The notes: generated from the letters alone by a model not told the origin. DNA of 62,223 bases, filler included, from an uncultured bacterium (GCA_964609495.1; 4 parts of 4 records of this genome joined end to end with filler, not necessarily neighbours in it), one strand, 5' to 3'; positions 34,799-47,079 are shown, counted from the first letter of the whole stretch. Numbers and translations: made by a program.

Positions 34799-36064
34799 AT
34801 GGATGAAAAACTAGCGATAAAGGGAGGAACTCCAGCGGTGCAGAGACCTTTCCCTCCGATGTTTCCCGGAGGGATGGAGATCGGCGCCGAGGAGGAGAGA
34901 GCGGTGATCGAGGTTCTTAGATCTAAGCGCCTTTTTCGTTACTATGGACCTTTAGAAACACCCTCTAAGGTAGCGGAATTTGAGGAGAAGTTCGCTGAAC
35001 GCGTGGGCGTTAAGTATGCTTTGGGAGTGACTTCAGGAACAGCCGCCCTCATCGCGGGTCTCGTCGGAATCGGAATTGGCCCTGGAGATGAGGTGATAGT
35101 TCCCGCCTATACCTTCATCGCCTCCGCAACTGCTATTCTCGCGGTCAATGCTATTCCGGTGATCGTAGAGGTGGATGACTCTTTGACCCTCGATCCCGAA
35201 GCCTTCGAGGCGGCTATCACTCCGCAGACTAAAGCGGTTATGCCAGTTCATATGCGAGGTATTCCTGCCCAGATGGACAAAATTATGGATATCGCTCGCA
35301 AGCATAACCTCAAGGTAATTGAAGATGTTGCCCAGTCCGATGGGGGAAGCTTCCGGGGGAGGAGGTTAGGCTCTATAGGAGATGTGGGAGGATTCAGCCT
35401 CCAATACCATAAGATCATCACTACTGGTGAAGGGGGAATAGTCACCACCGATGATGAGGAGGTTATGAACAGAGCCAGGCAATATCATGATGATGCTTGT
35501 GCTTTTAGGGAAACTGGAGAGATGAGCTTAATTCCCATTCCCGGGGTAAATTATCGGATGAACGAGATATCAGGAGCGCTAGGTCTAGTTCAGTTGAAGA
35601 AGCTCGATGGTCTATTGGCAAAGATGTGGAGCTATAAGGCTAAGATCAAAGAGGCGACAAGGGAGTTCTTGGGTATCCAGTTCAGAAGAATCCCTGATGA
35701 AGATGGAGATACTGGAATCTGTTTGATGTTCTTCCTTCCTACGGTTGAGAAGGCTAAGGAGATCGCTACCGCACTTAGAGCGGAGGGAGTAATCGCTGGA
35801 ACTTGGTATAGCAAGGATGTTCCCGACTGGCATGTATATGCTCACTGGAAACATATCCTCCAGAAGAAAGCCACTAACAGAGTTGGCTGCCCTTATACCT
35901 GTCCTTATTACAAGGGTTCGGTGGAATATTCAGAGGACATGTGTCCAAAGACGCTCGACTATCTCGGCAGAGTAATTCATATGAATATCAGTCCTATGCT
36001 CACTAAGGAGGATGTAGAACAGATTATATATGGTATGAGGAAAGTTTTTAAAGCTTTATTATAG
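34799..36064 (+). CDS. DegT/DnrJ/EryC1/StrS PLP sugar aminotransferase
   Basis: TSGTAAL, GDEVIVPAYTF, IEDVAQ, FSLQYHKIITTGEGG (PLP Lys), NYRMNE. Confidence 0.92.
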   Translation: MDEKLAIKGGTPAVQRPFPPMFPGGMEIGAEEERAVIEVLRSKRLFRYYGPLETPSKVAEFEEKFAERVGVKYALGVTSGTAALIAGLVGIGIGPGDEVIVPAYTFIASATAILAVNAIPVIVEVDDSLTLDPEAFEAAITPQTKAVMPVHMRGIPAQMDKIMDIARKHNLKVIEDVAQSDGGSFRGRRLGSIGDVGGFSLQYHKIITTGEGGIVTTDDEEVMNRARQYHDDACAFRETGEMSLIPIPGVNYRMNEISGALGLVQLKKLDGLLAKMWSYKAKIKEATREFLGIQFRRIPDEDGDTGICLMFFLPTVEKAKEIATALRAEGVIAGTWYSKDVPDWHVYAHWKHILQKKATNRVGCPYTCPYYKGSVEYSEDMCPKTLDYLGRVIHMNISPMLTKEDVEQIIYGMRKVFKALL

Positions 36065-36077
36065 CGAGGAGGTTTGA

Positions 36078-36911
36078 ATGGTGGATGATAAGAGGATACC
36101 AACGCTTCTGATCGGTTATGACGTAGAGAGTCCAGAACCAGATATAACCCGTGCTTTTTTGAAGAAGCTTCTTGAAGTCCATACTAAATATGATGTTCCT
36201 TGGACGATGTTTGTAGTAGGAAGAACTTTGGAGGGATCTGTTGATGCTTTTAAGGAGGTAGCCGAATCTCCCCTAGCCGATATCCAACAACATACTTATT
36301 CTCATATGCTATTGAAGACAGTGGTGATAGAGAATGAGGACGGGGTCAACATCTTTCGTAGTGGAACTTTGGAACAGATCGAGGAGGAGGTTAGGAAGAC
36401 TAACGAACTTTTGAAGCTTCACTTGAATATCGATTGTATAGGACTCACCGGTCCTTATTGCTATTACCGGGGATTGGCAGATCGACTCGATATATTGGAG
36501 ATCCTTCACCAAAATGGGATTCGTTTCACTCGCACTTATGGGCGAAATGAACACGATTGGCAACCGGTATCGTTCGATATCCAGCCCTTCTACTATGAAC
36601 CTCAAGGATTTCCCGATATATTGGAATTTCCGATCCAGGGCTGGCAAGATGTGAGCTGGCGAGAGAAATATGGCTGGGATAAGATAGACGAATACATAGC
36701 TTCTCTCAAAGATAATATCGATTATGTGGTTGAGAAAAAATTGACTTATTCCTACGCTACCCATGACTGGAGTAGCATAAGGAATAATCCCGATATGGAT
36801 ATCATCAGAGCGCTGATCGAGTATGCCCAAGAGAGAGGAGTAAGAATAACGAGTTATAAGGAGTATTATGAGGAGATGGAGAGTAGGAGAAATAGCTTGA
36901 TGGATATCTGA
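36078..36911 (+). CDS. Polysaccharide deacetylase (CE4/NodB-like)
   Basis: GYDVES, TMFVVG, QHTYSH, HDW. Confidence 0.8.
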   Translation: MVDDKRIPTLLIGYDVESPEPDITRAFLKKLLEVHTKYDVPWTMFVVGRTLEGSVDAFKEVAESPLADIQQHTYSHMLLKTVVIENEDGVNIFRSGTLEQIEEEVRKTNELLKLHLNIDCIGLTGPYCYYRGLADRLDILEILHQNGIRFTRTYGRNEHDWQPVSFDIQPFYYEPQGFPDILEFPIQGWQDVSWREKYGWDKIDEYIASLKDNIDYVVEKKLTYSYATHDWSSIRNNPDMDIIRALIEYAQERGVRITSYKEYYEEMESRRNSLMDI

Positions 36912-36926
36912 GAAAGGAGGATCGTT

Positions 36927-37838
36927 ATGATTGATAATTTTGGAGAAACCGAGGATGTTAAAATAATCACCTTAATCGATAATTACACTAATCTCATCTT
37001 AGAATCGAAAGGTGAGGTAAAGCGATTAGAGGAAGATTTCGATCCTCCTCTAGCAGAGCATGGGCTATCGATCTATATACAACTGAAATCGGAATCTCAG
37101 ACTGTATTACTTGATACCGGGGTTACCAAGGTATCCCTACTGTATAATATGAAGGCTTTCAAACTGGATCCTAGGGATATAGACAAATTGGTGATCAGTC
37201 ATGGACATTTCGATCACACCGCCTCCGTAGTTGAGGTTATAAGAGCCTCGGGTAAGAGGATGCCAGTGGTAGTTCATCCCCACGTCTTCTTGGAGAGATG
37301 GTTTATCTCCTCCGATGGCAGGAAAGCAGGGCCCCAAATTGTCGAAAGAGAAGAATGGGAGGAGGTTGGAGCGGAGATCGTAGAGATCGAAAAACCGTAT
37401 CAACTAACCTCGGGATGTTGGGCAACTGGTCCCGTTCCCAGGACGAATGACTTTGAATTAGGTATTCCCACGGCATACTATCGAGATAATGGCGAGTTCA
37501 AGCACGATCCGATAACTGACGATCAATCCATAGTGGTGAATATCAAAGGTAAGGGATTAGTGATAATTTCAGGTTGTGCGCATGCTGGAATTATCAATAC
37601 CGTAAATTACGCTCGCGAGATTAGTGGAGTTGAAAAAGTGCATACTGTTATCGGCGGTTTTCACCTAACAGGAGCATCTGAAGAGAAAATAGAAAGAACA
37701 ATCAAGGAGATGAAAGCCTTCAAGCCTAAACTCGTTATTCCCATGCATTGCACTGGCTTCTCTGCCACAAGGGAATTTGCTGAGGAGATGCCCTCTCAAT
37801 TCGTCTTGAACGCAGTGGGGACTTCCATCCACTTTTAA
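36927..37838 (+). CDS. MBL-fold metallo-hydrolase
   Basis: AEHGLS, LLDTG, SHGHFDH, SGCAHAG, GGFHL, PMHCTG. Confidence 0.9.
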   Translation: MIDNFGETEDVKIITLIDNYTNLILESKGEVKRLEEDFDPPLAEHGLSIYIQLKSESQTVLLDTGVTKVSLLYNMKAFKLDPRDIDKLVISHGHFDHTASVVEVIRASGKRMPVVVHPHVFLERWFISSDGRKAGPQIVEREEWEEVGAEIVEIEKPYQLTSGCWATGPVPRTNDFELGIPTAYYRDNGEFKHDPITDDQSIVVNIKGKGLVIISGCAHAGIINTVNYAREISGVEKVHTVIGGFHLTGASEEKIERTIKEMKAFKPKLVIPMHCTGFSATREFAEEMPSQFVLNAVGTSIHF

Positions 37839-37859
37839 AGAAAGATTAGAGGTGTTAAT

Positions 37860-38861
37860 ATGAACTCAAGAGATAGATTTTTAAATTCTTTAAAACGAGA
37901 GAAAGTTGATAGAATCTCCGTGGGAAATGCGGTATCGATCGCTACTTTGGATATGATGGATGCTACGGGTTATTACTTTCCCGAGGTCCACTTAGACGCG
38001 GAGAAGATGGTAGGTCTGGCTAGAGCTGGATATGAGCTTCTAGGCTATGACACGATAGCTCCGATCTTCAGTGTTCAACAAGAGGCTGAAGCGCTGGGAT
38101 GCAAAGTAGATTGGGGAACTATAGATATGATGCCCGATGTTAAGGGACATCTTTGCAAAGAACCAGAGGACATAGTTATTCCCAAGGATTTCCTAGATAA
38201 ACGCTCCACCAGAGTTGTCCTAGACGCTTTGAGATTATTGAAGAATATATTTGATGATGAGGTAGCAATCGTGGGAAAGGTCTTTGGTCCTTGGACATTA
38301 GGATATCATCTCTTCGGAGTGGAGGAGTTCTTGATATCAACCATCTTAGCAGAAGATAAGGTGCGAAAGATATTGAGCATACTGAAGGAGGTTACAGTGA
38401 TCTTCGCCAAAGCTCAGATCGAAGCCGGAGCCGATGTCCTCACCTTAGCCGATCATGCTACTGGAGATCTATGTAGTCCTATGGCCTATAGAGATTTCTT
38501 AATGGACGTCCATAAGGAGTTGAAGGAAAGGATCTCGGTCCCTATAATCCTTCATATCTGCGGAGATACAGCCGATCGCATGGGATATATTGCCCAGACC
38601 GGTATTGACTGCTTTCATTTCGAGTCTAAAGTCGATCCTTTCGTCGCTAAGGAGATAGTTGATGATAGGATCATACTGATGGGAAACATTAATAATCCGG
38701 AGACGTTGCTGTTTGGAACTGTCGAGGATGTCAAAGAGGAGACTAGAAGGGTTATGAGCGCGGGGATAGAGATATTAGCCCCTGAATGTGCAGTGCCTCT
38801 TCAGACTCCTATGAGGAATCTTAAAGCTATAGTAGATGCAGTTGAAGATTCTCAATTCTAA
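37860..38861 (+). CDS. MtaA/CmuA-family (URO-D fold) methylcobamide:thiol methyltransferase-like
   Basis: FPEVH, EAEALG, GPWT, Zn ligands LHICG and APEC, MGNIN. Confidence 0.85.
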   Translation: MNSRDRFLNSLKREKVDRISVGNAVSIATLDMMDATGYYFPEVHLDAEKMVGLARAGYELLGYDTIAPIFSVQQEAEALGCKVDWGTIDMMPDVKGHLCKEPEDIVIPKDFLDKRSTRVVLDALRLLKNIFDDEVAIVGKVFGPWTLGYHLFGVEEFLISTILAEDKVRKILSILKEVTVIFAKAQIEAGADVLTLADHATGDLCSPMAYRDFLMDVHKELKERISVPIILHICGDTADRMGYIAQTGIDCFHFESKVDPFVAKEIVDDRIILMGNINNPETLLFGTVEDVKEETRRVMSAGIEILAPECAVPLQTPMRNLKAIVDAVEDSQF

Positions 38862-38939: not shown

Positions 38940-38968
38940 TTGCATTTTAACTAATTATATGATATAAT
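38940..38968 (+). promoter_or_regulatory. Sigma70 promoter of BMC operon
   Basis: TTGCAT-N17-TATAAT with TG extension. Confidence 0.7.
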
Positions 38969-39020: not shown

Positions 39021-40040
39021 ATGGGACTAGTTAATATGAACGATGTTCTAATTCAGGCCGATAGGGAGAGATATGCTGTTGGCGCCTTTAATGTTATCAA
39101 TTTAGAATTTCTGGAGGCGATATTGGATGCGGCTATAGCTAAGAAATCTCCAGTGGTACTGAGCGTAGCCGAAGTTCACTTCAAATACGTCACTTTGGAT
39201 AATATAGCCCCTCTTATCTCGGAGCTAGCCCAGAGAGCTCCTGTTCCGGTAGTTATACACCTAGATCATGGGGAGAGCTTCGAGACCGTTATGAGAGCTA
39301 TTAGATGCGGATTCACTTCGGTTATGTTCGATGGCTCGACACTTCCTTTCGAGGAGAACATCGCTAAGACCAGGGAGGTAGTGAAAGCTGCTCACGCTTG
39401 CGGAGTGTCTGTCGAGGCGGAGCTAGGCCAAGTCATGGGTTCTGAAGGAGGGACGGGAGGTTATACCGGCGCGGTCGATGTCTCAGCTTTCACGAGACCC
39501 GAAGATGCCGCGGAGTTCGTAGCTAGGACCAAGGTCGATAACCTAGCGGTAGCTATAGGTTCGGCTCACGGTAGATATTCCCAACCGCCTAAGCTAGATT
39601 TCGATCGTCTGACGGCGATAAAGAGAGCCACTGGGATCCCTTTATCCTTGCATGGAGGAACAGGCATTGCCCCGCAGGATTTCAAAACAGCGATTCAACT
39701 CGGAATAACTAAAGTTAATATCTATACCGCTATGGCTCAAAGAGCTACCGAGATCGTGAGGGAGAGATTGGAGGCAGATCCTGAGACTGTGAACCTGCCC
39801 GGGGTCCTTAAATATGCCAAGGGAGGAGTTACCGAAGTAGTTATGGAGCATATGGATATCTTCGGCAGTAGTGGGATATGCGATGCTCATAATGCCCTCT
39901 GCGCTGTTTGTAACTCCTGTGATAATTGTAAGATACCTGCTGAGAAGACTGGTGCTCCCACCCTGCAAGGTATGGATCAAGAGGAGATGATTCGGCTTAT
40001 AACTCAGATAGTAACTGGAGTTTTAAGGGAAATCGGTTGA
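39021..40040 (+). CDS. Class II fructose/tagatose-bisphosphate aldolase with Cys-rich linker and C-terminal encapsulation peptide
   Basis: YAVGAFN, HLDHG, SVMFDGS, VEAELG, GSAHG, LHGGTG, KVNI; tail CDAHNALCAVCNSCDNC...QEEMIRLITQIVTGVLREIG. Confidence 0.9.
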   Translation: MGLVNMNDVLIQADRERYAVGAFNVINLEFLEAILDAAIAKKSPVVLSVAEVHFKYVTLDNIAPLISELAQRAPVPVVIHLDHGESFETVMRAIRCGFTSVMFDGSTLPFEENIAKTREVVKAAHACGVSVEAELGQVMGSEGGTGGYTGAVDVSAFTRPEDAAEFVARTKVDNLAVAIGSAHGRYSQPPKLDFDRLTAIKRATGIPLSLHGGTGIAPQDFKTAIQLGITKVNIYTAMAQRATEIVRERLEADPETVNLPGVLKYAKGGVTEVVMEHMDIFGSSGICDAHNALCAVCNSCDNCKIPAEKTGAPTLQGMDQEEMIRLITQIVTGVLREIG

Positions 40041-40084
40041 GAAAACTTTAAGAATTTGGTGAAATAAACTAGGAGGTGAATTTG

Positions 40085-40390
40085 ATGGCCGGAGAGGCAT
40101 TGGGAATGATCGAAACTAAGGGATTCGTGGGAATGGTCGAGGCTTCTGATGCTATGGTCAAAGCAGCAAAGGTGCGTCTGGTAAGATATGAGAAGACCGG
40201 GGGTGGATATGTAACTGCTATCGTTAGAGGAGATGTGGGAGCGGTTAAGGCGGCAGTTGAGGCTGGAGCTGCGGCTGCTAAAAGGGTCGGAGAGCTAGTA
40301 TCAGTTCACGTAATTCCCAGTCCTCACTCTGATGTGGATGAAATAATCTTAAGCCAAAGAAAGCCGATCAAGGTTGGAGGAGAGGATTAA
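40085..40390 (+). CDS. BMC-H shell hexamer (EutM/PduA-like)
   Basis: [31 protein letters not shown]. Confidence 0.96.
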
Positions 40391-40459
40391 CAGCTTAACT
40401 TCGGAGATTGGCCATCGCTTAGCTATGAGAGCGACAAGCCGATCACTAAGATCATATCG

Positions 40460-40509
40460 CAGGATTTAAGGATCGTTCTGTCGAATTACGGCTTATTCCT
40501 TAAATCCTG
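40460..40509. other. 13-bp perfect inverted repeat between BMC-H genes
   Basis: CAGGATTTAAGGA ... TCCTTAAATCCTG. Confidence 0.7.
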
Positions 40510-40533
40510 TCGAATCCTTAGAAGGAGGAGATT

Positions 40534-40836
40534 ATGGCAGATTACAGGGAAGCCTTAGGTATGATTGAAACTAGAGGCTTTATAGCTATGGTTGAAGCTT
40601 CTGACGCTATGGTTAAGGCAGCAAATGTTAAGTTAGTTCGATACGAGAAGATCGGTGGAGGGTATATAACTGCCATTGTCAGAGGAGATGTCGCCGCAGT
40701 CCGATCGGCTATTGATGCCGGTAGTGCGGCTGCCAGCAGAGTCGGAGAGGTGATATCTGTTCACGTAATTCCACGTCCTCATACCGATGTTGATAGTGTC
40801 CTTCCTGTCAGCTTGGAGGCTGCTGAAGAAGAATAA
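40534..40836 (+). CDS. BMC-H shell hexamer (EutM/PduA-like)
   Basis: [29 protein letters not shown]. Confidence 0.96.
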
Positions 40837-40869
40837 GCTTTTATCCCCTTTAGGGTAGGGTGAAACTTT

Positions 40870-41157
40870 ATGGATCTATGTAGGGTAGTAGGGACTATCG
40901 TCGCTACGAATAAGGATAAAGGGCTTGTCAGAAGGAAACTTCAAGTGGTGGAGACCGTTGATCTTGAAGGAAGAGGGAAGGGCTCCTTTAGCATCGCAGT
41001 AGACTCCGTAGGAGCAGGACAGGGCGAATACGTATTAGTGGCAAGTGGTAGCTCAGCCAGAGAGACTGAGCTGACTAGAGATAGACCTTGCGACTTGGTT
41101 ATTATGGCTATCGTCGAACTTCTGGAGGTTGAGGGCGAGATAGTTTACCAGAAGTAA
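40870..41157 (+). CDS. BMC-P pentamer (EutN/CcmL)
   Basis: RVVGTIVATNKD, AVDSVGAGQGE, SGSSAR. Confidence 0.95.
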   Translation: MDLCRVVGTIVATNKDKGLVRRKLQVVETVDLEGRGKGSFSIAVDSVGAGQGEYVLVASGSSARETELTRDRPCDLVIMAIVELLEVEGEIVYQK

Positions 41158-41244
41158 TTCTCGAGAAAATAGAAGGGGAGTGGTTACCCCATCCAATTAT
41201 CATTTTCTAATTACTAACTCCCAAATATCAAGAAGGAGGGATTT

Positions 41245-42681
41245 ATGGCTATCGATGAGAAAGTAATAAGTTCGATAGTGCAGAAGGTCGTCTCCCAGCT
41301 AGCTCAAGAGGGTAAGATATCCCCTCCAACTTCCCTTCGGAGAGCTTTTGAGGGAAGGAATGGACTCTTCTCTGACCTGGAGGTGGCAATAGGGGCGGCT
41401 GAGGAAGCGCAGAGAAGGCTCGTTGACAATACCTTGGAGAAGAGGAAGGAGATAATCGCCGCTATTCGCCAAGCGGCTTTAGATAACGCAGATCTTTTGG
41501 GTCAGATGGAATATAACGAGACTAAGATGGGGCGCCTAGAACACAAGACTATGAAGGTTATTCATCCGGCTCAAACGACTCCTGGGATGGAGATTTTAGA
41601 GCCAGTTGTATTTACTGGAGATAATGGGATAGCGATCGAGGATTGGGCCCCCTTTGGAGTGATAGGGGCTATTACTCCTTCTACTAATCCACCCTCTACG
41701 GTTATCAATAATGCGATCGGTATGATATCTGCGGGGGACTCTCTCGTCGTCAATCCTCATCCGGCGGCTAAGAGTGTAACTATGAAGACGATAGAGCTCC
41801 TAAATCAAGCTATCGTTAAGGTGGGAGGTCCTGATAACCTACTAACTTCGGTGACCAATCCTACGATAGATACCGCTCGAGCTTTGATGACTCATCCTAA
41901 GATCGCTATATTAGCGGTTACAGGAGGCCCAGCGGTGGTGAAGGTAGCGATGAGCTCCGGGAAAAAGGTTATTGCGGCTGGACCTGGCAATCCCCCGGTA
42001 GTTGTGGATGAGACCGCTGATATAAGGAAGGCGGCTAGGGATATTGTGGAGGGGGCTTCCTTCGATAATAATATTCAATGTCTATCGGAGAAGGAGATAT
42101 TTGTTGTGAATAGCGTTGCTGATGAACTCAAAGCCTATATGAAGCAGGAGGGAGCTTATGAGATAAGCGTTCAGCAACTCGATGGGGTGATGGGGACTCT
42201 CTTCAAAGAGCTTAATTATCACCGAGAGGAATCTATTCCCAGCCGAGATTTTGTGGGAAGAGATGCCAAGGTTATCCTCCAGCAGATCGGGATCACCGTG
42301 GGAGATGAAGTTAGGCTAGTTATAGTGGAGACTGATATTGAGCATCCTCTCGTCTGGGCTGAGCAGTTGATGCCTGTGGTTCCTATAGTAAGGGTGAGGG
42401 ATGTTGATGAGGGTATCAAATTTGCAGTGGAGGCGGAGAGAGGTTGCTATCACACTGCGATTATGCATTCTCAAAATATCAATAATATAAGTAAGATGGC
42501 TAAGCTCATAAACACCGCCAACTTCGTCACTAATGCTCCCTCCCTCGCGGCAAATGCGGTTGGTGGCGAGGGGTATGGCACTTGGACCTTAACGACTACC
42601 ACTGGAGATGGGGCTTCCACTGCTAGAAACTTCGCCAGGAAGAGGCGTCTAGTGGTAGCCAATAATTTACGATTTGTGTAG
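41245..42681 (+). CDS. CoA-acylating aldehyde dehydrogenase (EutE/PduP) with N-terminal encapsulation peptide
   Basis: IDEKVISSIVQKVVSQL; PFGVIGAITPSTNP, TGGPAVV, AGPGNPP, FDNNIQCLSEKE, EQLMP, HTAIMHS. Confidence 0.95.
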   Translation: MAIDEKVISSIVQKVVSQLAQEGKISPPTSLRRAFEGRNGLFSDLEVAIGAAEEAQRRLVDNTLEKRKEIIAAIRQAALDNADLLGQMEYNETKMGRLEHKTMKVIHPAQTTPGMEILEPVVFTGDNGIAIEDWAPFGVIGAITPSTNPPSTVINNAIGMISAGDSLVVNPHPAAKSVTMKTIELLNQAIVKVGGPDNLLTSVTNPTIDTARALMTHPKIAILAVTGGPAVVKVAMSSGKKVIAAGPGNPPVVVDETADIRKAARDIVEGASFDNNIQCLSEKEIFVVNSVADELKAYMKQEGAYEISVQQLDGVMGTLFKELNYHREESIPSRDFVGRDAKVILQQIGITVGDEVRLVIVETDIEHPLVWAEQLMPVVPIVRVRDVDEGIKFAVEAERGCYHTAIMHSQNINNISKMAKLINTANFVTNAPSLAANAVGGEGYGTWTLTTTTGDGASTARNFARKRRLVVANNLRFV

Positions 42682-42691
42682 AGGTGAGGAG

Positions 42692-43285
42692 ATGGAAGGA
42701 AAAGAGACCGCCATCCTCTTGCTCGAATTCCAGAACGAATTTTGTTCGCCCGATGGATTTTTCTATAACGCGGTTAAAGGCGAACTAGCCAGGCAGAATA
42801 CTATCGAAAACACGATCGATCTCGTCAACAGAGCCCGGGGGAAAGCCCTGATCATCCATGTGCCGATCAGCTTCAGTGGGAATTATAACGAGATCGATAG
42901 GCCAACTGGGATCCTCAAAGGGGTACTGGCAGCAAATGCATTCCGAAAAGGGTCCAGAGGAGCCCAGATAATAGGTGGACTTAGACCTCGGGTTGAGGAC
43001 ATAGTTATCGAGGGGAAGAGGGGATTGGGTGGCTTCAGTAGCACCAATTTGGATTGGGTTCTCCGCAACAAAGGCATCAAAAATGTGGCTATCTGTGGCT
43101 TCCTGACTAATGTCTGTGTTGAGTCCACAGCCCGAACGGCTTATGATAGAGGATATCAGGTAACTGTTATAAAGGATTGCACTGCCGCCACCTCGCCCGA
43201 GGAACAGAAGTTCGCTGAGGAGAAAATCTTTCCTCTTCTGGGGAACGTGATGACATACCGGGAATTTTTGAATCAGTTGGAGTAA
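42692..43285 (+). CDS. Cysteine hydrolase (isochorismatase/RutB-like family)
   Basis: LLEFQNEF, GKRG, GFLTNVCVESTARTAYDRGY, DCTAA. Confidence 0.9.
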   Translation: MEGKETAILLLEFQNEFCSPDGFFYNAVKGELARQNTIENTIDLVNRARGKALIIHVPISFSGNYNEIDRPTGILKGVLAANAFRKGSRGAQIIGGLRPRVEDIVIEGKRGLGGFSSTNLDWVLRNKGIKNVAICGFLTNVCVESTARTAYDRGYQVTVIKDCTAATSPEEQKFAEEKIFPLLGNVMTYREFLNQLE

Positions 43286-43318
43286 ATATCCTTTTCCCAT
43301 TACTCGAGGGGTATATAT

Positions 43319-43648
43319 ATGATTTTAGGTAGAGTTTGCGGAACTGTTGTAGCAACCTGTAAAGATCCTAAATTAACTGGGAGTAAACTCCTAGTTGTGA
43401 AGGAGATAGATATAGCGGGAAAGCCTACCGGGACTTTCTTTGTCGCTATGGATACCGTGGGGGCGGGATATGGGGAGACCGTGATTCTAGTGCGAGGAAG
43501 CTCGGCTCGAATGACCGAGTTTACGAATAAATCTCCTGTTGATACCGCCATCATTGCCATAATTGATATAGTTGAAGTTCATAAGCAAGTCGTATTCAAG
43601 AAGGAAGAGGAGATTTGGAGGGAATTTGCTGAGCCGAGTAAATCTTAA
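43319..43648 (+). CDS. BMC-P pentamer (EutN/CcmL) with short C-terminal extension
   Basis: GRVCGTVVATCKD, DTVGAGYGE, GSSAR, PVDTAIIAIID. Confidence 0.95.
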   Translation: MILGRVCGTVVATCKDPKLTGSKLLVVKEIDIAGKPTGTFFVAMDTVGAGYGETVILVRGSSARMTEFTNKSPVDTAIIAIIDIVEVHKQVVFKKEEEIWREFAEPSKS

Positions 43649-43657
43649 TGAGGTAAA

Positions 43658-44983
43658 ATGATGGAGGAAATAGTAGAGAAGGTAAGGGAAGCTGGTGTCG
43701 TGGGAGCGGGAGGCGCAGGCTTTCCTACTCATATTAAGCTTAAGTCTAAGGTAGAGTATGTGATCGCTAATGGCGCGGAATGTGAACCCTTGCTCAGAGT
43801 CGATCGACAACTGATGGAGACTCAAGCCGATCTTATCGTACGTGGCTTGGAGATAGCAATGAAGACCACCGGTGCTGATAAGGGGATCATAGCTCTGAAG
43901 GGGAAGTATAAGGAAGCGGTCGAAGCTCTGGAGAAGGCTAGCTCCTCTTTTGATGATATAGAGGTTAGATTATTGGGTAATTTCTATCCAGCAGGAGATG
44001 AGCATGTTCTAGTCTATGAGATGACCGGAAGGATAGTCCCTGAGGGAGGAATCCCTTTAGCTGTCGGGGTGGTGGTGAATAACATCTCAACCCTAATAAA
44101 CATCTCCCACGCAGTTGATAGAGATCAGCCAGTTATCCATCGTCATTTAACCATAACCGGAGAAGTTGCCCATCCTAAGACCTTATGTGTTCCTGTAGGG
44201 ACTATTATCGAGGATGTTATCGCTTCGGCTGGAGGAACCACGGTTGAGGACTTCGTAGTTATCGATGGTGGCCCAATGATGGGCAATATCGTCCCATCTA
44301 CTGATAGTGTAAAAAAGACGACTAGCGGTTTGATAATCCTTCCTAGAGAACATACCCTCATTCAACGGAAAACACAAGGAATAAGTTATAGCTTAAAAAG
44401 AGCTCAAGCGATCTGCTGTCAATGTGATGCTTGCACAGAGATGTGTCCTCGTTATCTATTAGGACATCATCTATATCCTAACAAAACTATGGTCTGGGTG
44501 AACTACGAGCTATCCGATCTTGGTGCTCCGATCACCTCCGCTTATCTATGTTGTGAGTGTGGGCTATGCGGATTATTCTCCTGTCCAATGGGGCTTACTC
44601 CGGTGAATATTTATAAAGATATAAAGGTTCTCCTGGAAAAGCAAGGGATTAGGAATCCTCACCAGGAGAAGGATTTAACTCCCAATCCCAAGCGTGAGTA
44701 TCAGCAAGTCCCTGTCCATAGACTGCTCGAACGTCTGCAACTTGGACCCTATGATGTGGAGGCTCCTCTGGAGGATAAGATATATGAGCCAAACTTAGTG
44801 CGAATAGATCTCTCCCAACATTTAGGAGCTCCAGCTATCCCGATAATAAAGGTTGGAGATAGGGTGAAGGCAAGAGATCTGATCGGGGAGATCCCTGAAG
44901 GTTCGCTATCGGCGAGAGTTCACGCCAGTATTTCAGGAGTAGTTAGAGATATAGATACTCGGGTAACGATCGAGGCGGATTAG
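43658..44983 (+). CDS. pduS: PduS-like flavin/Fe-S oxidoreductase (RnfC/SLBB family)
   Basis: AGVVGAGGAGFPTH, NGAECEPLL, YPAGDE, GGPMMG, CCQCDACTEMCP, CCECGLC, QHLGAPA, HASISG. Confidence 0.88.
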   Translation: MMEEIVEKVREAGVVGAGGAGFPTHIKLKSKVEYVIANGAECEPLLRVDRQLMETQADLIVRGLEIAMKTTGADKGIIALKGKYKEAVEALEKASSSFDDIEVRLLGNFYPAGDEHVLVYEMTGRIVPEGGIPLAVGVVVNNISTLINISHAVDRDQPVIHRHLTITGEVAHPKTLCVPVGTIIEDVIASAGGTTVEDFVVIDGGPMMGNIVPSTDSVKKTTSGLIILPREHTLIQRKTQGISYSLKRAQAICCQCDACTEMCPRYLLGHHLYPNKTMVWVNYELSDLGAPITSAYLCCECGLCGLFSCPMGLTPVNIYKDIKVLLEKQGIRNPHQEKDLTPNPKREYQQVPVHRLLERLQLGPYDVEAPLEDKIYEPNLVRIDLSQHLGAPAIPIIKVGDRVKARDLIGEIPEGSLSARVHASISGVVRDIDTRVTIEAD

Positions 44984-45077
44984 ATGAGAAGGAGAAATTG
45001 GGAGGAGGTGAGGCCGAGGGATATATTAATTGTGAGGTTTAGGGTAAAATATATCTTAAAAGGAGGTATAAGTAAAG

Positions 45078-46328
45078 ATGTTCAAAAGATCATTGATTTT
45101 AATGATAGTTTTTGCGATGATGCTTATTTGGGTTGGGGGAGCATTAGCGGCTGAGAATGTTAGAATATCTCGTCCTGCTAATCAGCCTCTAGATGAATGG
45201 AATAAAGGGGCTCTGGATAGATACATGAAGGAGAATCCGGATATCAAGGTCGTCTATGAAACCGCCCCCTACAATGAGTATCTAGCTAAGTTACAGACTA
45301 CCTATGCGGCCGGGGGAGGATCGGACATATTCTTCGTTACGGAGATAGTTCCCTATATCGAGAGCGGAATGTCGGCAGCAGCATCAGAATGGATGGCTGA
45401 GGATATCAGAGCTAATTATACTGATTTTGCTATCGAGGCTGTCTCTTGGGAGGGCAAGGTGTATGGGTATCCTAACGAAGGTGGCCCTCGAGTTATGTTC
45501 TACAACAAGGACCTCTTTGCCGAGGCGGGTATAACCGAACTGCCTGGAGATTGGGAGGAGCTAAGAGAAGTGGCTAAGAAGACCACGAAGTATAAGGGCG
45601 ATATGCTCACCCAGCAAGGTATAGTCACTAGCTGGGGACCTGATGGGATATGTGTCCTAGGTTCTTTCCTCTACTCCAATGGTGGAGAATGGATGAGTGA
45701 GGATCTAACCGAGCCTATGTTCGATCAGCCCGAATCTGTCGAGGCTCTAAAATACTGGACGGAGTTAGTAACCGTTGATAAGGTCTCCTCTCCAGCTTTT
45801 GTTGAGGATTCCTTTGCTCTTGGCAAATCCGCGATGATGGTCACCGGCCCTTGGAACATCCCTCATCTGACTGATGTTGCTCCCGATCTCGACTATGCCG
45901 CTTTCCTGATCCCACCCAAGAACAAGGGAGATAGATTCTACGTGGATGATGCCCCTTGGGTATGGATGGTGAACTCCAACAGCAAGAATCAAGAGGAATC
46001 TTGGAAAGTTCTTGCCTTCCTACATAATAACCAGAATTTAGTTGATTATGCCATAGATGCGGGTGGTATTCCCTTCAAGGAAGAGCCTATCGAGACCCTC
46101 AAGGGTAAGCTCGATACCGCCTTGCCTCCTAAGGAAGCTGAGGTTTGGAAGGTCTTCCTAGAATCCACTAAGTATTCGAAGCTAAGACCCTTCCGCCATT
46201 ATCTTGATATCTGCTTCAAGTTTGGAGCGGAGATGGAGCGAGCTCTGTTAGGAGAGATAACGCCAGAAGAAGCGGCTAAGAATGGGGCAGATAAGATTCG
46301 TCAGACTATCAAGGAGATGGGTAAGTAA
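45078..46328 (+). CDS. Sugar ABC solute-binding protein
   Basis: Signal peptide, ENPDIKV, GKVYGYP, FYNKDLF.EAG, AMMVTGPW. Confidence 0.9.
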   Translation: MFKRSLILMIVFAMMLIWVGGALAAENVRISRPANQPLDEWNKGALDRYMKENPDIKVVYETAPYNEYLAKLQTTYAAGGGSDIFFVTEIVPYIESGMSAAASEWMAEDIRANYTDFAIEAVSWEGKVYGYPNEGGPRVMFYNKDLFAEAGITELPGDWEELREVAKKTTKYKGDMLTQQGIVTSWGPDGICVLGSFLYSNGGEWMSEDLTEPMFDQPESVEALKYWTELVTVDKVSSPAFVEDSFALGKSAMMVTGPWNIPHLTDVAPDLDYAAFLIPPKNKGDRFYVDDAPWVWMVNSNSKNQEESWKVLAFLHNNQNLVDYAIDAGGIPFKEEPIETLKGKLDTALPPKEAEVWKVFLESTKYSKLRPFRHYLDICFKFGAEMERALLGEITPEEAAKNGADKIRQTIKEMGK

Positions 46329-46336
46329 TTGATTCG

Positions 46337-46373
46337 AGGTGACAACTATCTCGGGCTAAGATAGTTGTCACCT
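46337..46373. terminator. Perfect 15-bp stem-loop after SBP gene
   Basis: AGGTGACAACTATCT-cgggcta-AGATAGTTGTCACCT. Confidence 0.7.
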
Positions 46374-46396
46374 ATCCTCAGAGGAGTTGAGTAAAT

Positions 46397-47079
46397 TTGA
46401 CCTCAAGACGTTATCTCTTAAATAAGAAGAATGTTCCTTATGTTTTCATTGTCCCCTCGATCCTCTTCTTCTTAATCTTCGCAGGATTCCCGATTATCTA
46501 CGCCTTCTACCTCAGCTTTCACAACTGGAATGTTCTAAATCCAGAGAAACCATTTGTTGCACTTACTAACTATAAACTTATCTTTCAAGATGATATATTT
46601 GTTCAGACTATAATCAACACCGCCTATTATACAGTTGGAGTAGTAACCCTGGGAACGATATTTTCGATGATCTGCGCGATCTTCGTTAATGCGGTGATAA
46701 AACCCCTGAGGTTAGCGGTTAGAACGATCGCTTTTATTCCGGTGGTAACCTCAATGGTGGCGGCGGCTATAATCTGGAAATGGATATATCAGCCGATGTA
46801 TGGCTTAGCTAATTATTTATTAGAGGGGATCGGCTTAGGGCCATATATGTGGCTGAGAAGCACTACTCAAGCTATGCCCGCAGTGATCATAATGAGCGTT
46901 TGGAAGGGGTTAGGTTTCAGTATGGTTATCTTCCTAGCAGGACTTCAGAATATCCCGGAGATGTATTACGAAGCGGCTAGAATAGATGGAGCGAACCCTT
47001 TTCACCTCTTTAGACATATAACTCTGCCTCTGCTTAGACCTACGATTCTGTACGTAATGGTAACCGGGGAAATTGGCTC
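46397..47079 (+). CDS. Sugar ABC permease (3' truncated)
   Basis: LAGLQNIP..YYEAARIDGA, ITLPLLRP. Confidence 0.9.

Follow-up and report, generated by a model that had tools for sequence, protein, structure and literature searches.

The shell operon and its genes

The DNA analysed in this study, hereafter the window, is a stretch of 62,223 bases in which four contigs of one metagenome-assembled genome (MAG) stand in a row with N/linker spacers between them (C74, 1-15927; C75, 16028-31660; C76, 31761-47079; C79, 47180 onward). The genome comprises 349 contigs (3.78 Mb, completeness 99.45%, contamination 4.26%), and its organism is a lone lineage, the sole genome of its phylum in the reference set compared, and the 40 reference relatives are akin to it at domain level only. 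Our subject is a bacterial microcompartment (BMC) operon on C76, at 39021-47079, and in particular the aldolase with which it opens, which carries a cysteine-rich C-terminal tail ending in an amphipathic helix. Considering all the evidence below, we think it probable that this locus is the main shell-and-core operon of an SPU-type metabolosome whose genes lie in at least four places of the genome.

The first gene encodes a class II aldolase of the fructose-bisphosphate aldolase (FBA)/GatY type, 339 amino acids long with a C-terminal extension (39021-40040; PF01116, 8.8e-95), and it stands 35 nucleotides (nt) ahead of the first of two BMC-H shell proteins (40076-40390 and 40534-40836; PF00936, 1.9e-30 and 4.1e-31). 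These are followed by BMC-P vertex protein 1 (40870-41157; PF03319, 3.9e-27), a CoA-acylating aldehyde dehydrogenase (AldDH; 41245-42681) that reaches 611 bits against NCBIfam model PRK15398 (cut-off 403) and is the one copy of its type found in the genome, an isochorismatase-family cysteine hydrolase (42692-43285; PF00857, 6.2e-43; 197 amino acids from its ATG, with a TTG at 42674), BMC-P vertex protein 2 (43319-43648; PF03319, 1.2e-29), and a PduS-like flavin and Fe-S protein, MNdh in the 2024 naming, with matches to PF01512, PF10531, PF13534 and PF13375 (43658-44983). The operon continues with a sugar-type ATP-binding cassette (ABC) solute-binding protein with a signal peptide (45078-46328; PF01547 and PF13416; weak matches to the GanS and MalE models) and ABC permease 1 (46397-47079; PF00528), which is cut by the end of C76, with a spacer from 47080, and probably continues on another contig, C119. 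All genes lie on the + strand with short gaps, and no alcohol dehydrogenase gene is present in the locus. The gene inventory of the original prediction, its statement that the contig ends inside the locus and its recognition of a metabolosome locus were all borne out.

The 160-nt gap upstream of the aldolase holds a putative promoter, found by eye on the + strand at 38940-38968, about 52 nt before the aldolase start (TTGCAT, 17 nt, extended -10 TGaTATAAT). A consensus scan gave 30 promoter-like sites against 22.3 in shuffled sequences (standard deviation 5.2), which is no excess, and the combined promoter and terminator scan likewise gave no signal above shuffles; the site at 38940-38968 is not in the list of that consensus scan, which demands four of six matches in the first hexamer. 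Since there was no excess over shuffles, the claim that one promoter drives the whole operon cannot be demonstrated.

The tail of the FBA-type aldolase

The aldolase consists of a catalytic barrel followed by three distinct parts. In an alignment of 36 sequences, D82, H83, H183 and H211 of the barrel are invariant, as are C287, C294 and C300 of the four-cysteine motif that follows it (C287-x6-C294-x2-C297-x2-C300; 39879-39920, + strand), and at least 90% of the sequences also have C297. An AlphaFold2 model built on the same alignment (mean pLDDT 88.7) shows the aldolase barrel, a well-modelled cysteine-rich stretch, a linker at residues 301-319 with pLDDT of 60-66, and a helix at residues 320-338 (39978-40034, + strand), which is a putative encapsulation peptide. 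The hydrophobic moment of this helix is 2.21, and that of the encapsulation-peptide-like helix at the N-terminus of AldDH (residues ~5-22) is 1.76, compared with a 99th percentile of 1.69 for internal 15-mers from four proteins of the locus, so the amphipathic helices predicted for both enzymes were supported.

Tailed relatives of the aldolase come from Poribacteria, Sumerlaeota, Latescibacterota and further phyla. Among the 120 best database matches, which are 43-59% identical, 95 carry C-x(5-7)-C-x2-C-x(2-3)-C after residue 270, and most of the remainder combine variant cysteine spacings with a terminal helix; only four stop right after the barrel (286-288 amino acids), and the other 116 clusters are longer than a bare barrel. 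The source names of these relatives include Poribacteria, Sumerlaeota/BRC1 and Latescibacteria. Protein-pattern scans with the aldolase returned at least 598 stretches, almost all of them ordinary FBAs, and the locus L048 was the only tailed relative among the matches listed. A DNA pattern for the cysteine motif, run on species-representative genomes, returned 37 stretches, which resolved into 17 true relatives from 16 genomes and 20 chance matches.

In none of the 17 loci from other genomes was a shell gene, AldDH, PduS or hydrolase found near the tailed aldolase, with flanks of up to 10 kb covered and several contigs of only 3-8 kb, and a further genome scan using the best-scoring relative (P0003) gave 17 new loci, none with shell genes. 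The neighbours in other genomes vary, and those that recur are GFO/IDH/MocA oxidoreductases, xylose-isomerase-like proteins, acetate kinase and FGGY kinase. Among the loci compared, a tailed aldolase in a shell operon occurs only in this window. BMC-domain genes are nevertheless present elsewhere in 13 of the 16 tailed-aldolase genomes, which belong to several phyla. In a 101-genome sample of one phylum, 16 genomes have BMC genes and five have the tailed aldolase; all five fall among those 16, so that BMC genes occur in 5/5 genomes with the tailed aldolase and in 11/96 of the others.

In each of five genomes tested, the tailed enzyme is accompanied by another PF01116 match. This match is full-length in four of them (G041, G144, G145 and G146), where the tailed aldolase is an additional paralogue, and a 26-residue fragment under the cut-off in the fifth (G155); the genome studied here has three untailed PF01116 paralogues.

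A literature search did not find a tailed PF01116 aldolase linked to catabolic microcompartments, subscription papers and supplements in PDF form being outside its reach. The literature that pairs microcompartments with PF01116-type aldolases concerns, by its titles, carbon fixation and one comparison of clinical Klebsiella genomes. PF01116 is also absent from the hidden Markov model (HMM) table, Supplementary Data 6, of the 2021 BMC catalogue (PMC8217296).

An inositol-type route, in which an IolJ-like aldolase would yield malonic semialdehyde, was considered on account of the GFO/IDH/MocA and xylose-isomerase-like genes that in some phyla neighbour either the aldolase or the shell locus. It was dropped, because genes of these kinds occur very commonly and none for IolB, IolC or IolD turned up.

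Components encoded on other contigs

A genome search for BMC domains gave further matches on C119, C52 and C12, and one PduL was found on C140. C119 is likely to adjoin C76, judging from their ends: the last 83 residues of a permease stand at the start of reversed C119, in the reading frame of the truncated permease 1, 35 of the last 37 nt of C76 are identical to bases 10-46 of reversed C119, and these two ends are the sole N-terminal-only and C-terminal-only fragments among the ~45 paralogous permeases. After the end of permease 1, C119 carries permease 2, a tandem BMC-T, two BMC-P and a PF00596 aldolase. The BMC-T (184 amino acids; eut_PduT model, 3.6e-36) has VCPGK in its sequence. The PF00596 aldolase, which is FucA-type (268 amino acids; C119:7755-8561, - strand; 1.3e-49 over residues 9-186), ends in a tail composed of CETCGLCGGEVC, a linker and an amphipathic helix with a moment of 1.73, and its best NCBIfam matches are all under their cut-offs and spread over several activities. 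The ~45 permease paralogues are of the CUT1 sugar type, and their number suggests a strongly saccharolytic lifestyle.

On C66, a cytidine deaminase, a tailed RpiB-like protein and a tailed DERA stand in a row, followed by recO (L233:2646-4826, - strand). The DERA (292 amino acids; C66:2646-3524, - strand) scores 296.5 bits against deoC TIGR00126 (cut-off 117.3) over residues 72-281, and its 71-residue N-terminal extension consists of an amphipathic helix followed by C-x6-C-x5-C-x3-C. The RpiB-like protein (261 amino acids; C66:3528-4313, - strand) begins its PF02502 domain at residue 113, after a 112-residue N-terminal extension of helix and linker, and has Asp at the position of the catalytic Cys ('IMIDGVG'), whereas a second copy on C94 keeps the Cys ('ILICGTG'). 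The PduL on C140 has a 43-residue N-terminal head with a helix of moment 1.69. No tailed triose-phosphate isomerase or alcohol dehydrogenase was seen in the genome, where the single triose-phosphate isomerase open reading frame (ORF) has 253 amino acids and the best Fe-ADH ORF 376; two acetate kinases are encoded, on C11 and C187.

The helix of the FBA-type aldolase resembles those on five other cargo-type enzymes of this genome. A regular expression for such terminal helices, run over 3,104 ORFs, recovered the known cargo and few others; this recovery is not independent evidence, because the expression was derived from those same helices.

Several further features of the genome deserve mention. 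Directly upstream of the operon and in the same direction (34799-38861) lie genes for a DegT-type aminotransferase, a CE4 polysaccharide deacetylase, an MBL-fold hydrolase and an MtaA/CmuA-family methyltransferase, and the first gene of C76 (31817-32749) looks HNH-nuclease-like by eye, with CxxC...HxxxxxxxxxN...CxxC followed by a basic C-terminal part. On C52 (L010:70-3173, - strand), a 173-residue BMC-H with a C-terminal extension adjoins three 2-oxoacid:ferredoxin oxidoreductase subunits (POR, TPP_enzyme_C and POR_N/PFOR_II), families that the accessible part of the 2021 catalogue lists for BUF3 (PMC8217296); this could be a second, satellite pairing of shell and enzyme in the genome.

Related shell loci in other genomes

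We compared the locus with 28 regions around BMC genes from 17 related genomes. A recurring gene order was found in Latescibacterota, Armatimonadia and other phyla, namely FucA-type aldolase, BMC-H, sometimes PduL, BMC-P, AldDH, PduS and BMC-T, and in several genomes it is scattered over contigs. The AldDH of these loci are 41-55% and the PduS 43-55% identical to the copies described here, and the related PduS homologues adjoin BMC-T or stand one gene away from it. The FucA-type aldolases of the related loci all have a C-terminal tail whose helix resembles the one on the FBA-type aldolase and which holds one to four cysteines, the motif being less conserved there, and such a tailed PF00596 aldolase lies beside shell genes in nine genomes (G041, G057, G071, G085, G098, G146, G151, G154 and G156). 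The FBA-type aldolase itself was found in none of the 28 regions. In 20 genomes searched for DERA, nine gave a match; a tailed form was seen only in two BRC1/Sumerlaeota genomes (match from residue 27-29, 61-63% identity), and most of the others of those nine are untailed.

The fullest related locus is that of an Armatimonadia genome, G146 (L193:4556-16030), with genes for a xylose-isomerase-like protein, two GFO/IDH/MocA proteins, a tailed FucA-type aldolase, two BMC-H, PduL, three BMC-P, an unknown protein of 255 amino acids, AldDH, PduS, BMC-T and acetate kinase. The tailed FBA-type aldolase of the same genome lies on a separate contig, beside a second acetate kinase (L173).

Between PduS and BMC-T, two Latescibacterota loci (L190 and L210) have a DegT gene that is 34-36% identical, and in a clade of small genomes from another phylum this place is taken by a radical SAM gene (L134:12588-13601; annotated in L134 only), the same gap of ~1 kb between the two matches recurring in L211-L214. 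The junction of PduS and BMC-T seems to accept differing inserts, namely radical SAM and DegT genes there and the ABC transporter here.

The cysteine hydrolase

Little space is left around the hydrolase gene in the operon: 11 nt separate it from the stop codon of AldDH, and 33 nt from the BMC-P that follows. The PF00857 domain spans residues 12-195 of 203, so that the protein is without a terminal extension, and no amphipathic helix was found at its termini. K109 and C142 are invariant, and all 12 aligned members of the subfamily have Glu at a position normally occupied by the catalytic Asp in isochorismatase-like hydrolases. The subfamily (52-64% identical) is widespread, with members from Anaerolineae, Chloroflexota, Hymenobacter, Dongiaceae, Hodarchaeota and others.

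None of the 28 related shell-gene regions has a match to the hydrolase, and the 17 genomes hold no close homologue anywhere, their best paralogues being 29-40% identical. Among 80 metagenome loci with a homologue (512 kb in total; 22 of them at least 8 kb long), microcompartment genes lie near it in one, L244, which is SPU6-like. Its order (L244:1905-10642) is GntR regulator, tailed RpiB, tailed DERA, two BMC-P, EutH-type AldDH with a C-terminal helix, BMC-H, EutJ-like protein, two unknowns, two BMC-P and the hydrolase, which is 52% identical and begins 320 nt past the last BMC-P. One other SPU-like locus with the hydrolase at its edge is suggestive, and it is far from a conserved association. 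The hydrolase looks like a local add-on to the operon. The original prediction counted it in the unusual enzyme set of the locus and named its absence from homologous loci as a finding that would refute the proposed reading; such absence is largely what was observed.

Proposed working of the metabolosome and rival explanations

We infer that six helix-bearing enzymes, namely DERA, the RpiB-like protein, the FucA-type and FBA-type aldolases, AldDH and PduL, are packed in one shell, and we propose a plausible scheme for their joint working. DERA would split deoxyribose-5-phosphate into acetaldehyde and glyceraldehyde-3-phosphate; a nucleoside or DNA source of the deoxyribose phosphate would fit, because the cytidine deaminase adjoins. 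The FucA-type aldolase would split a ketose-1-phosphate into dihydroxyacetone phosphate (DHAP) and an aldehyde. The aldehydes would be converted to acyl-CoA by AldDH with formation of NADH, whose electrons may leave through the PduS-like protein and the Fe-S pore of the PduT-like, CPGK-bearing BMC-T, a route that the accessible text of PMC11626177 gives for the PduS/PduT pair. PduL would free CoA and pass acyl-phosphate to the cytosolic acetate kinases. The FBA-type aldolase is predicted to join DHAP and glyceraldehyde-3-phosphate into a ketose bisphosphate; this direction is the most likely one, and the cleavage of a ketose bisphosphate is less likely, both direction and substrate being predicted. 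Published SPU schemes have a class II aldolase that joins triose phosphates to fructose-1,6-bisphosphate (PMC11585597, in its accessible part), and the FBA-type enzyme is a far better candidate for this step than the FucA-type. The hydrolase and the ABC transporter are probably local insertions in the operon, acting as cytosolic and membrane helpers rather than as conserved parts of the organelle, and the transporter, and perhaps the CE4 deacetylase and DegT genes upstream, point to an imported carbohydrate.

We further propose, with less confidence and as a tentative idea, that four cysteines, a linker and an amphipathic helix together form a portable and probably metal-binding loading tag, borne by three unrelated aldolase folds, at the N-terminus of DERA and at the C-terminus of the FucA-type and FBA-type enzymes. 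The tailed FBA-type aldolase would then be an unrecognised cargo, usually encoded at a distance, of the dispersed ('FRAG'-like) and SPU-like microcompartments in Poribacteria, Sumerlaeota, Latescibacterota, Omnitrophota, Armatimonadota and others, and the true enzyme of the fructose-bisphosphate-forming or -cleaving step that SPU schemes assign to PF00596. If this is true, the present window is the only place found where a tailed FBA-type gene is physically tied to shell genes.

Several observations weigh against these proposals. In other genomes the tailed aldolase sits among housekeeping-like genes, such as those for EPSP synthase, MreB and leucyl aminopeptidase, and no BMC domain was detected in three of the 16 tailed-aldolase genomes, all of them Poribacteria MAGs whose completeness is not known. 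The five co-occurring genomes of the one-phylum sample count as about one event, because they are small and probably belong to one clade. The joining of C76 and C119 is itself deduced from an overlap of 37 nt with two mismatches. No shell gene was found within the first 15.5 kb, the part listed, of the 17,096-bp C66, and because that contig shows none, DERA and the RpiB-like protein are tied to the organelle by their extensions only.

The original prediction raised the possibility of an uncharacterised BMC subtype. In this reading the hydrolase would deacylate an imported N-acylated or carbamoylated sugar, a substrate suggested by the hydrolase itself; the FBA-type aldolase, serving as signature enzyme, would then cleave the sugar, and the resulting aldehyde would be oxidised to acyl-CoA. 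The tight packing of the hydrolase gene, the sugar ABC transporter inserted in the same operon, the CE4-type deacetylase and DegT aminotransferase just upstream, and the 52%-identical hydrolase of the SPU-like metagenome locus L244 would all suit such an organelle. However, the hydrolase bears no terminal extension or helix, is missing from all 28 related shell regions, where the genomes offer only distant paralogues, belongs to a subfamily found in Anaerolineae, Hymenobacter, Dongiaceae and others, and is without a microcompartment gene nearby in 79 of the 80 metagenome loci, of which 22 are at least 8 kb long; moreover, DERA and the FucA-type aldolase are available in the genome as more conventional signature enzymes. 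We therefore regard a new subtype as unlikely. The prediction had set the locus apart from SPU and PVM by its missing enzymes. The lack of BMC-T, PduL and RpiB is real on C76; in the genome as a whole it disappears, as these lie on C119, C140 and C66, and DERA and the FucA-type aldolase likewise lie elsewhere in the genome. The original reading is partly supported, and for a PF01116 aldolase the catalogue table has no model. The impression of a new type was misleading, as SPU hallmarks lie on three other contigs of the same genome, and a contig-limited view of a fragmented genome can mimic a new type of organelle.

A PVM-like metabolosome for deoxy-sugars of the fucose or rhamnose type seems about equally improbable. 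The FucA-type aldolase would then be the real signature enzyme, the ABC transporter would import the sugar, and DERA, RpiB and the FBA-type aldolase would be side players, which agrees with the tailed PF00596 aldolase beside shell genes in nine related genomes, with the further presence, as in PVM loci, of PduL, three BMC-P and acetate kinase in the Armatimonadia locus, and with the candidate-phylum loci called 'SPU-like' and 'PVM-like' by Axen et al. (2014; PMC4207490, in its accessible part). Against it, no gene on C76 or C119 was seen to encode a DeoR regulator, an isomerase or kinase for sugars, a dehydrogenase of the lactate/malate type or an acetate kinase, the sub-cut-off NCBIfam matches of the FucA-type aldolase point to several activities, and the extended DERA together with an RpiB bearing the SPU-specific substitution favours SPU. 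The PVM-like and SPU readings are not exclusive, because one shell could serve several aldolases. It is more doubtful still that the tail of the FBA-type aldolase has nothing to do with targeting and is instead a metal-binding, regulatory or oligomerisation tail of a cytosolic glycolytic paralogue, co-transcribed with shell genes by chance. The 17 of 17 loci in which the gene stands away from shell genes among housekeeping neighbours, and the three Poribacteria MAGs with the gene and no detected BMC domain, agree with this; against it stand the textbook arrangement in which a weak linker leads from the domain to a terminal amphipathic helix, the likeness of that helix to those on five other cargo-type enzymes, the other PF01116 matches in the five genomes tested (a fragment in G155) and the three untailed paralogues here, the co-occurrence with shell genes in 13 of 16 genomes, and the place of the gene at the head of a shell operon, 35 nt before BMC-H.

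Comparison with known systems

The likeness to BUF1 is confined to the isochorismatase-family hydrolase among shell genes, a family for which the 2021 catalogue has an HMM in BUF1 only (PMC8217296, Supplementary Data 6). BUF loci differ in being without AldDH and in having a xanthine/uracil permease, an adenine deaminase C-terminal domain and UbiD, whereas the locus here has AldDH and none of those three.

The FBA-type aldolase has PRK06801 (NCBIfam NF005284), a ketose-1,6-bisphosphate aldolase, as its best NCBIfam model. Over residues 1-285 it is 47-52% identical to the enterobacterial members, with which it has the AEVHFKY motif in common. One member, that of L051 (Escherichia sp.), has 286 amino acids, no tail and 565.5 bits, compared with 345.5 bits for the aldolase here, which is under the cut-off of 406. 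The neighbours of the L051 gene are a ribose-type ABC transporter, a lyxose/mannose isomerase and a PfkB kinase.

PduS and PduT form the MNdh/BMC-T(SE) module for NAD+ recycling, marked by a CP(G/S)K pore motif, and according to the accessible text the pairs are adjacent in 97% of cases and more than two genes apart in three of ~2,170 loci (PMC11626177). The PduS-like protein with its four named domains, the CPGK motif in the BMC-T and the lack of an alcohol dehydrogenase in the locus agree with this module. The difference is the solute-binding protein and two permeases between PduS-like protein and BMC-T here, if the C76-C119 join is right.

With PVM and with the SPU-like and PVM-like loci of the candidate phyla (PMC4207490, in its accessible part), the system shares AldDH, PduS, PduL, a PF00596 class II aldolase and several BMC-P; the C-terminal helix of that aldolase on C119 is a trait of the PVM signature enzyme. 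It differs from PVM in the regulator, kinase and dehydrogenase genes already named as missing among the C76 and C119 ORFs, and in the DERA and RpiB with SPU-type extensions.

The closest match is with the SPU metabolosomes, of which seven subtypes are described (PMC8217296; PMC11585597), and the comparison is based on gene content, extensions and motifs set against published traits. The accessible text of PMC11585597 reports DERA with an N-terminal helix extension in all loci, RpiB with an N-terminal helix, a linker of ~75 residues and a Cys-to-Asp change at the catalytic position in all SPU enzymes, AldDH in all loci, its helix being N-terminal outside SPU6, PduS in every subtype apart from SPU6, PduL with a helix, shells with three or more BMC-P and one or more tandem BMC-T, and a 'class II aldolase' at low frequency, with a C-terminal helix in SPU5. 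In the genome studied here, DERA, the RpiB-like protein (Cys to Asp), AldDH and PduL each have a helix extension and a PduS homologue is present; counting C119 in the system, there are four BMC-P (two on C76 and two on C119) and one tandem BMC-T; and there is a 'class II aldolase' with a C-terminal helix, as in some subtypes. Every listed SPU enzyme and shell trait is thus found; the placement of DERA and RpiB within the shell locus is not, as both lie away from shell genes, beside the cytidine deaminase. Two other differences are the hydrolase and ABC transporter inserted in the operon, and the presence of tails on both the PF00596 and the PF01116 aldolase, whereas the published SPU naming, in the accessible part of an archaeal SPU preprint (PMC12747264), equates the 'class II aldolase' with PF00596 only. 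The folds of the signature aldolase families PF01791 (DERA) and PF00596 (FucA-type) are unrelated to that of PF01116.

On balance, the system fits the published SPU metabolosome rather than a new type, and its interesting new feature is the tailed PF01116 aldolase with its tag of cysteines and helix. The recurrence of a cysteine motif beside the helix on different enzymes hints, from their sequences, at a metal site in the loading tag, on which the published SPU account is silent in its accessible part, where no zinc or cysteine motif in the extensions is mentioned (PMC11585597). The tailed PF01116 family is large and spans several poorly known phyla, which makes it a candidate cargo enzyme; as cargo, it would provide a testable enzyme for dispersed microcompartments of unknown content, and the fructose-bisphosphate step of the SPU proposals would have a fitting enzyme.

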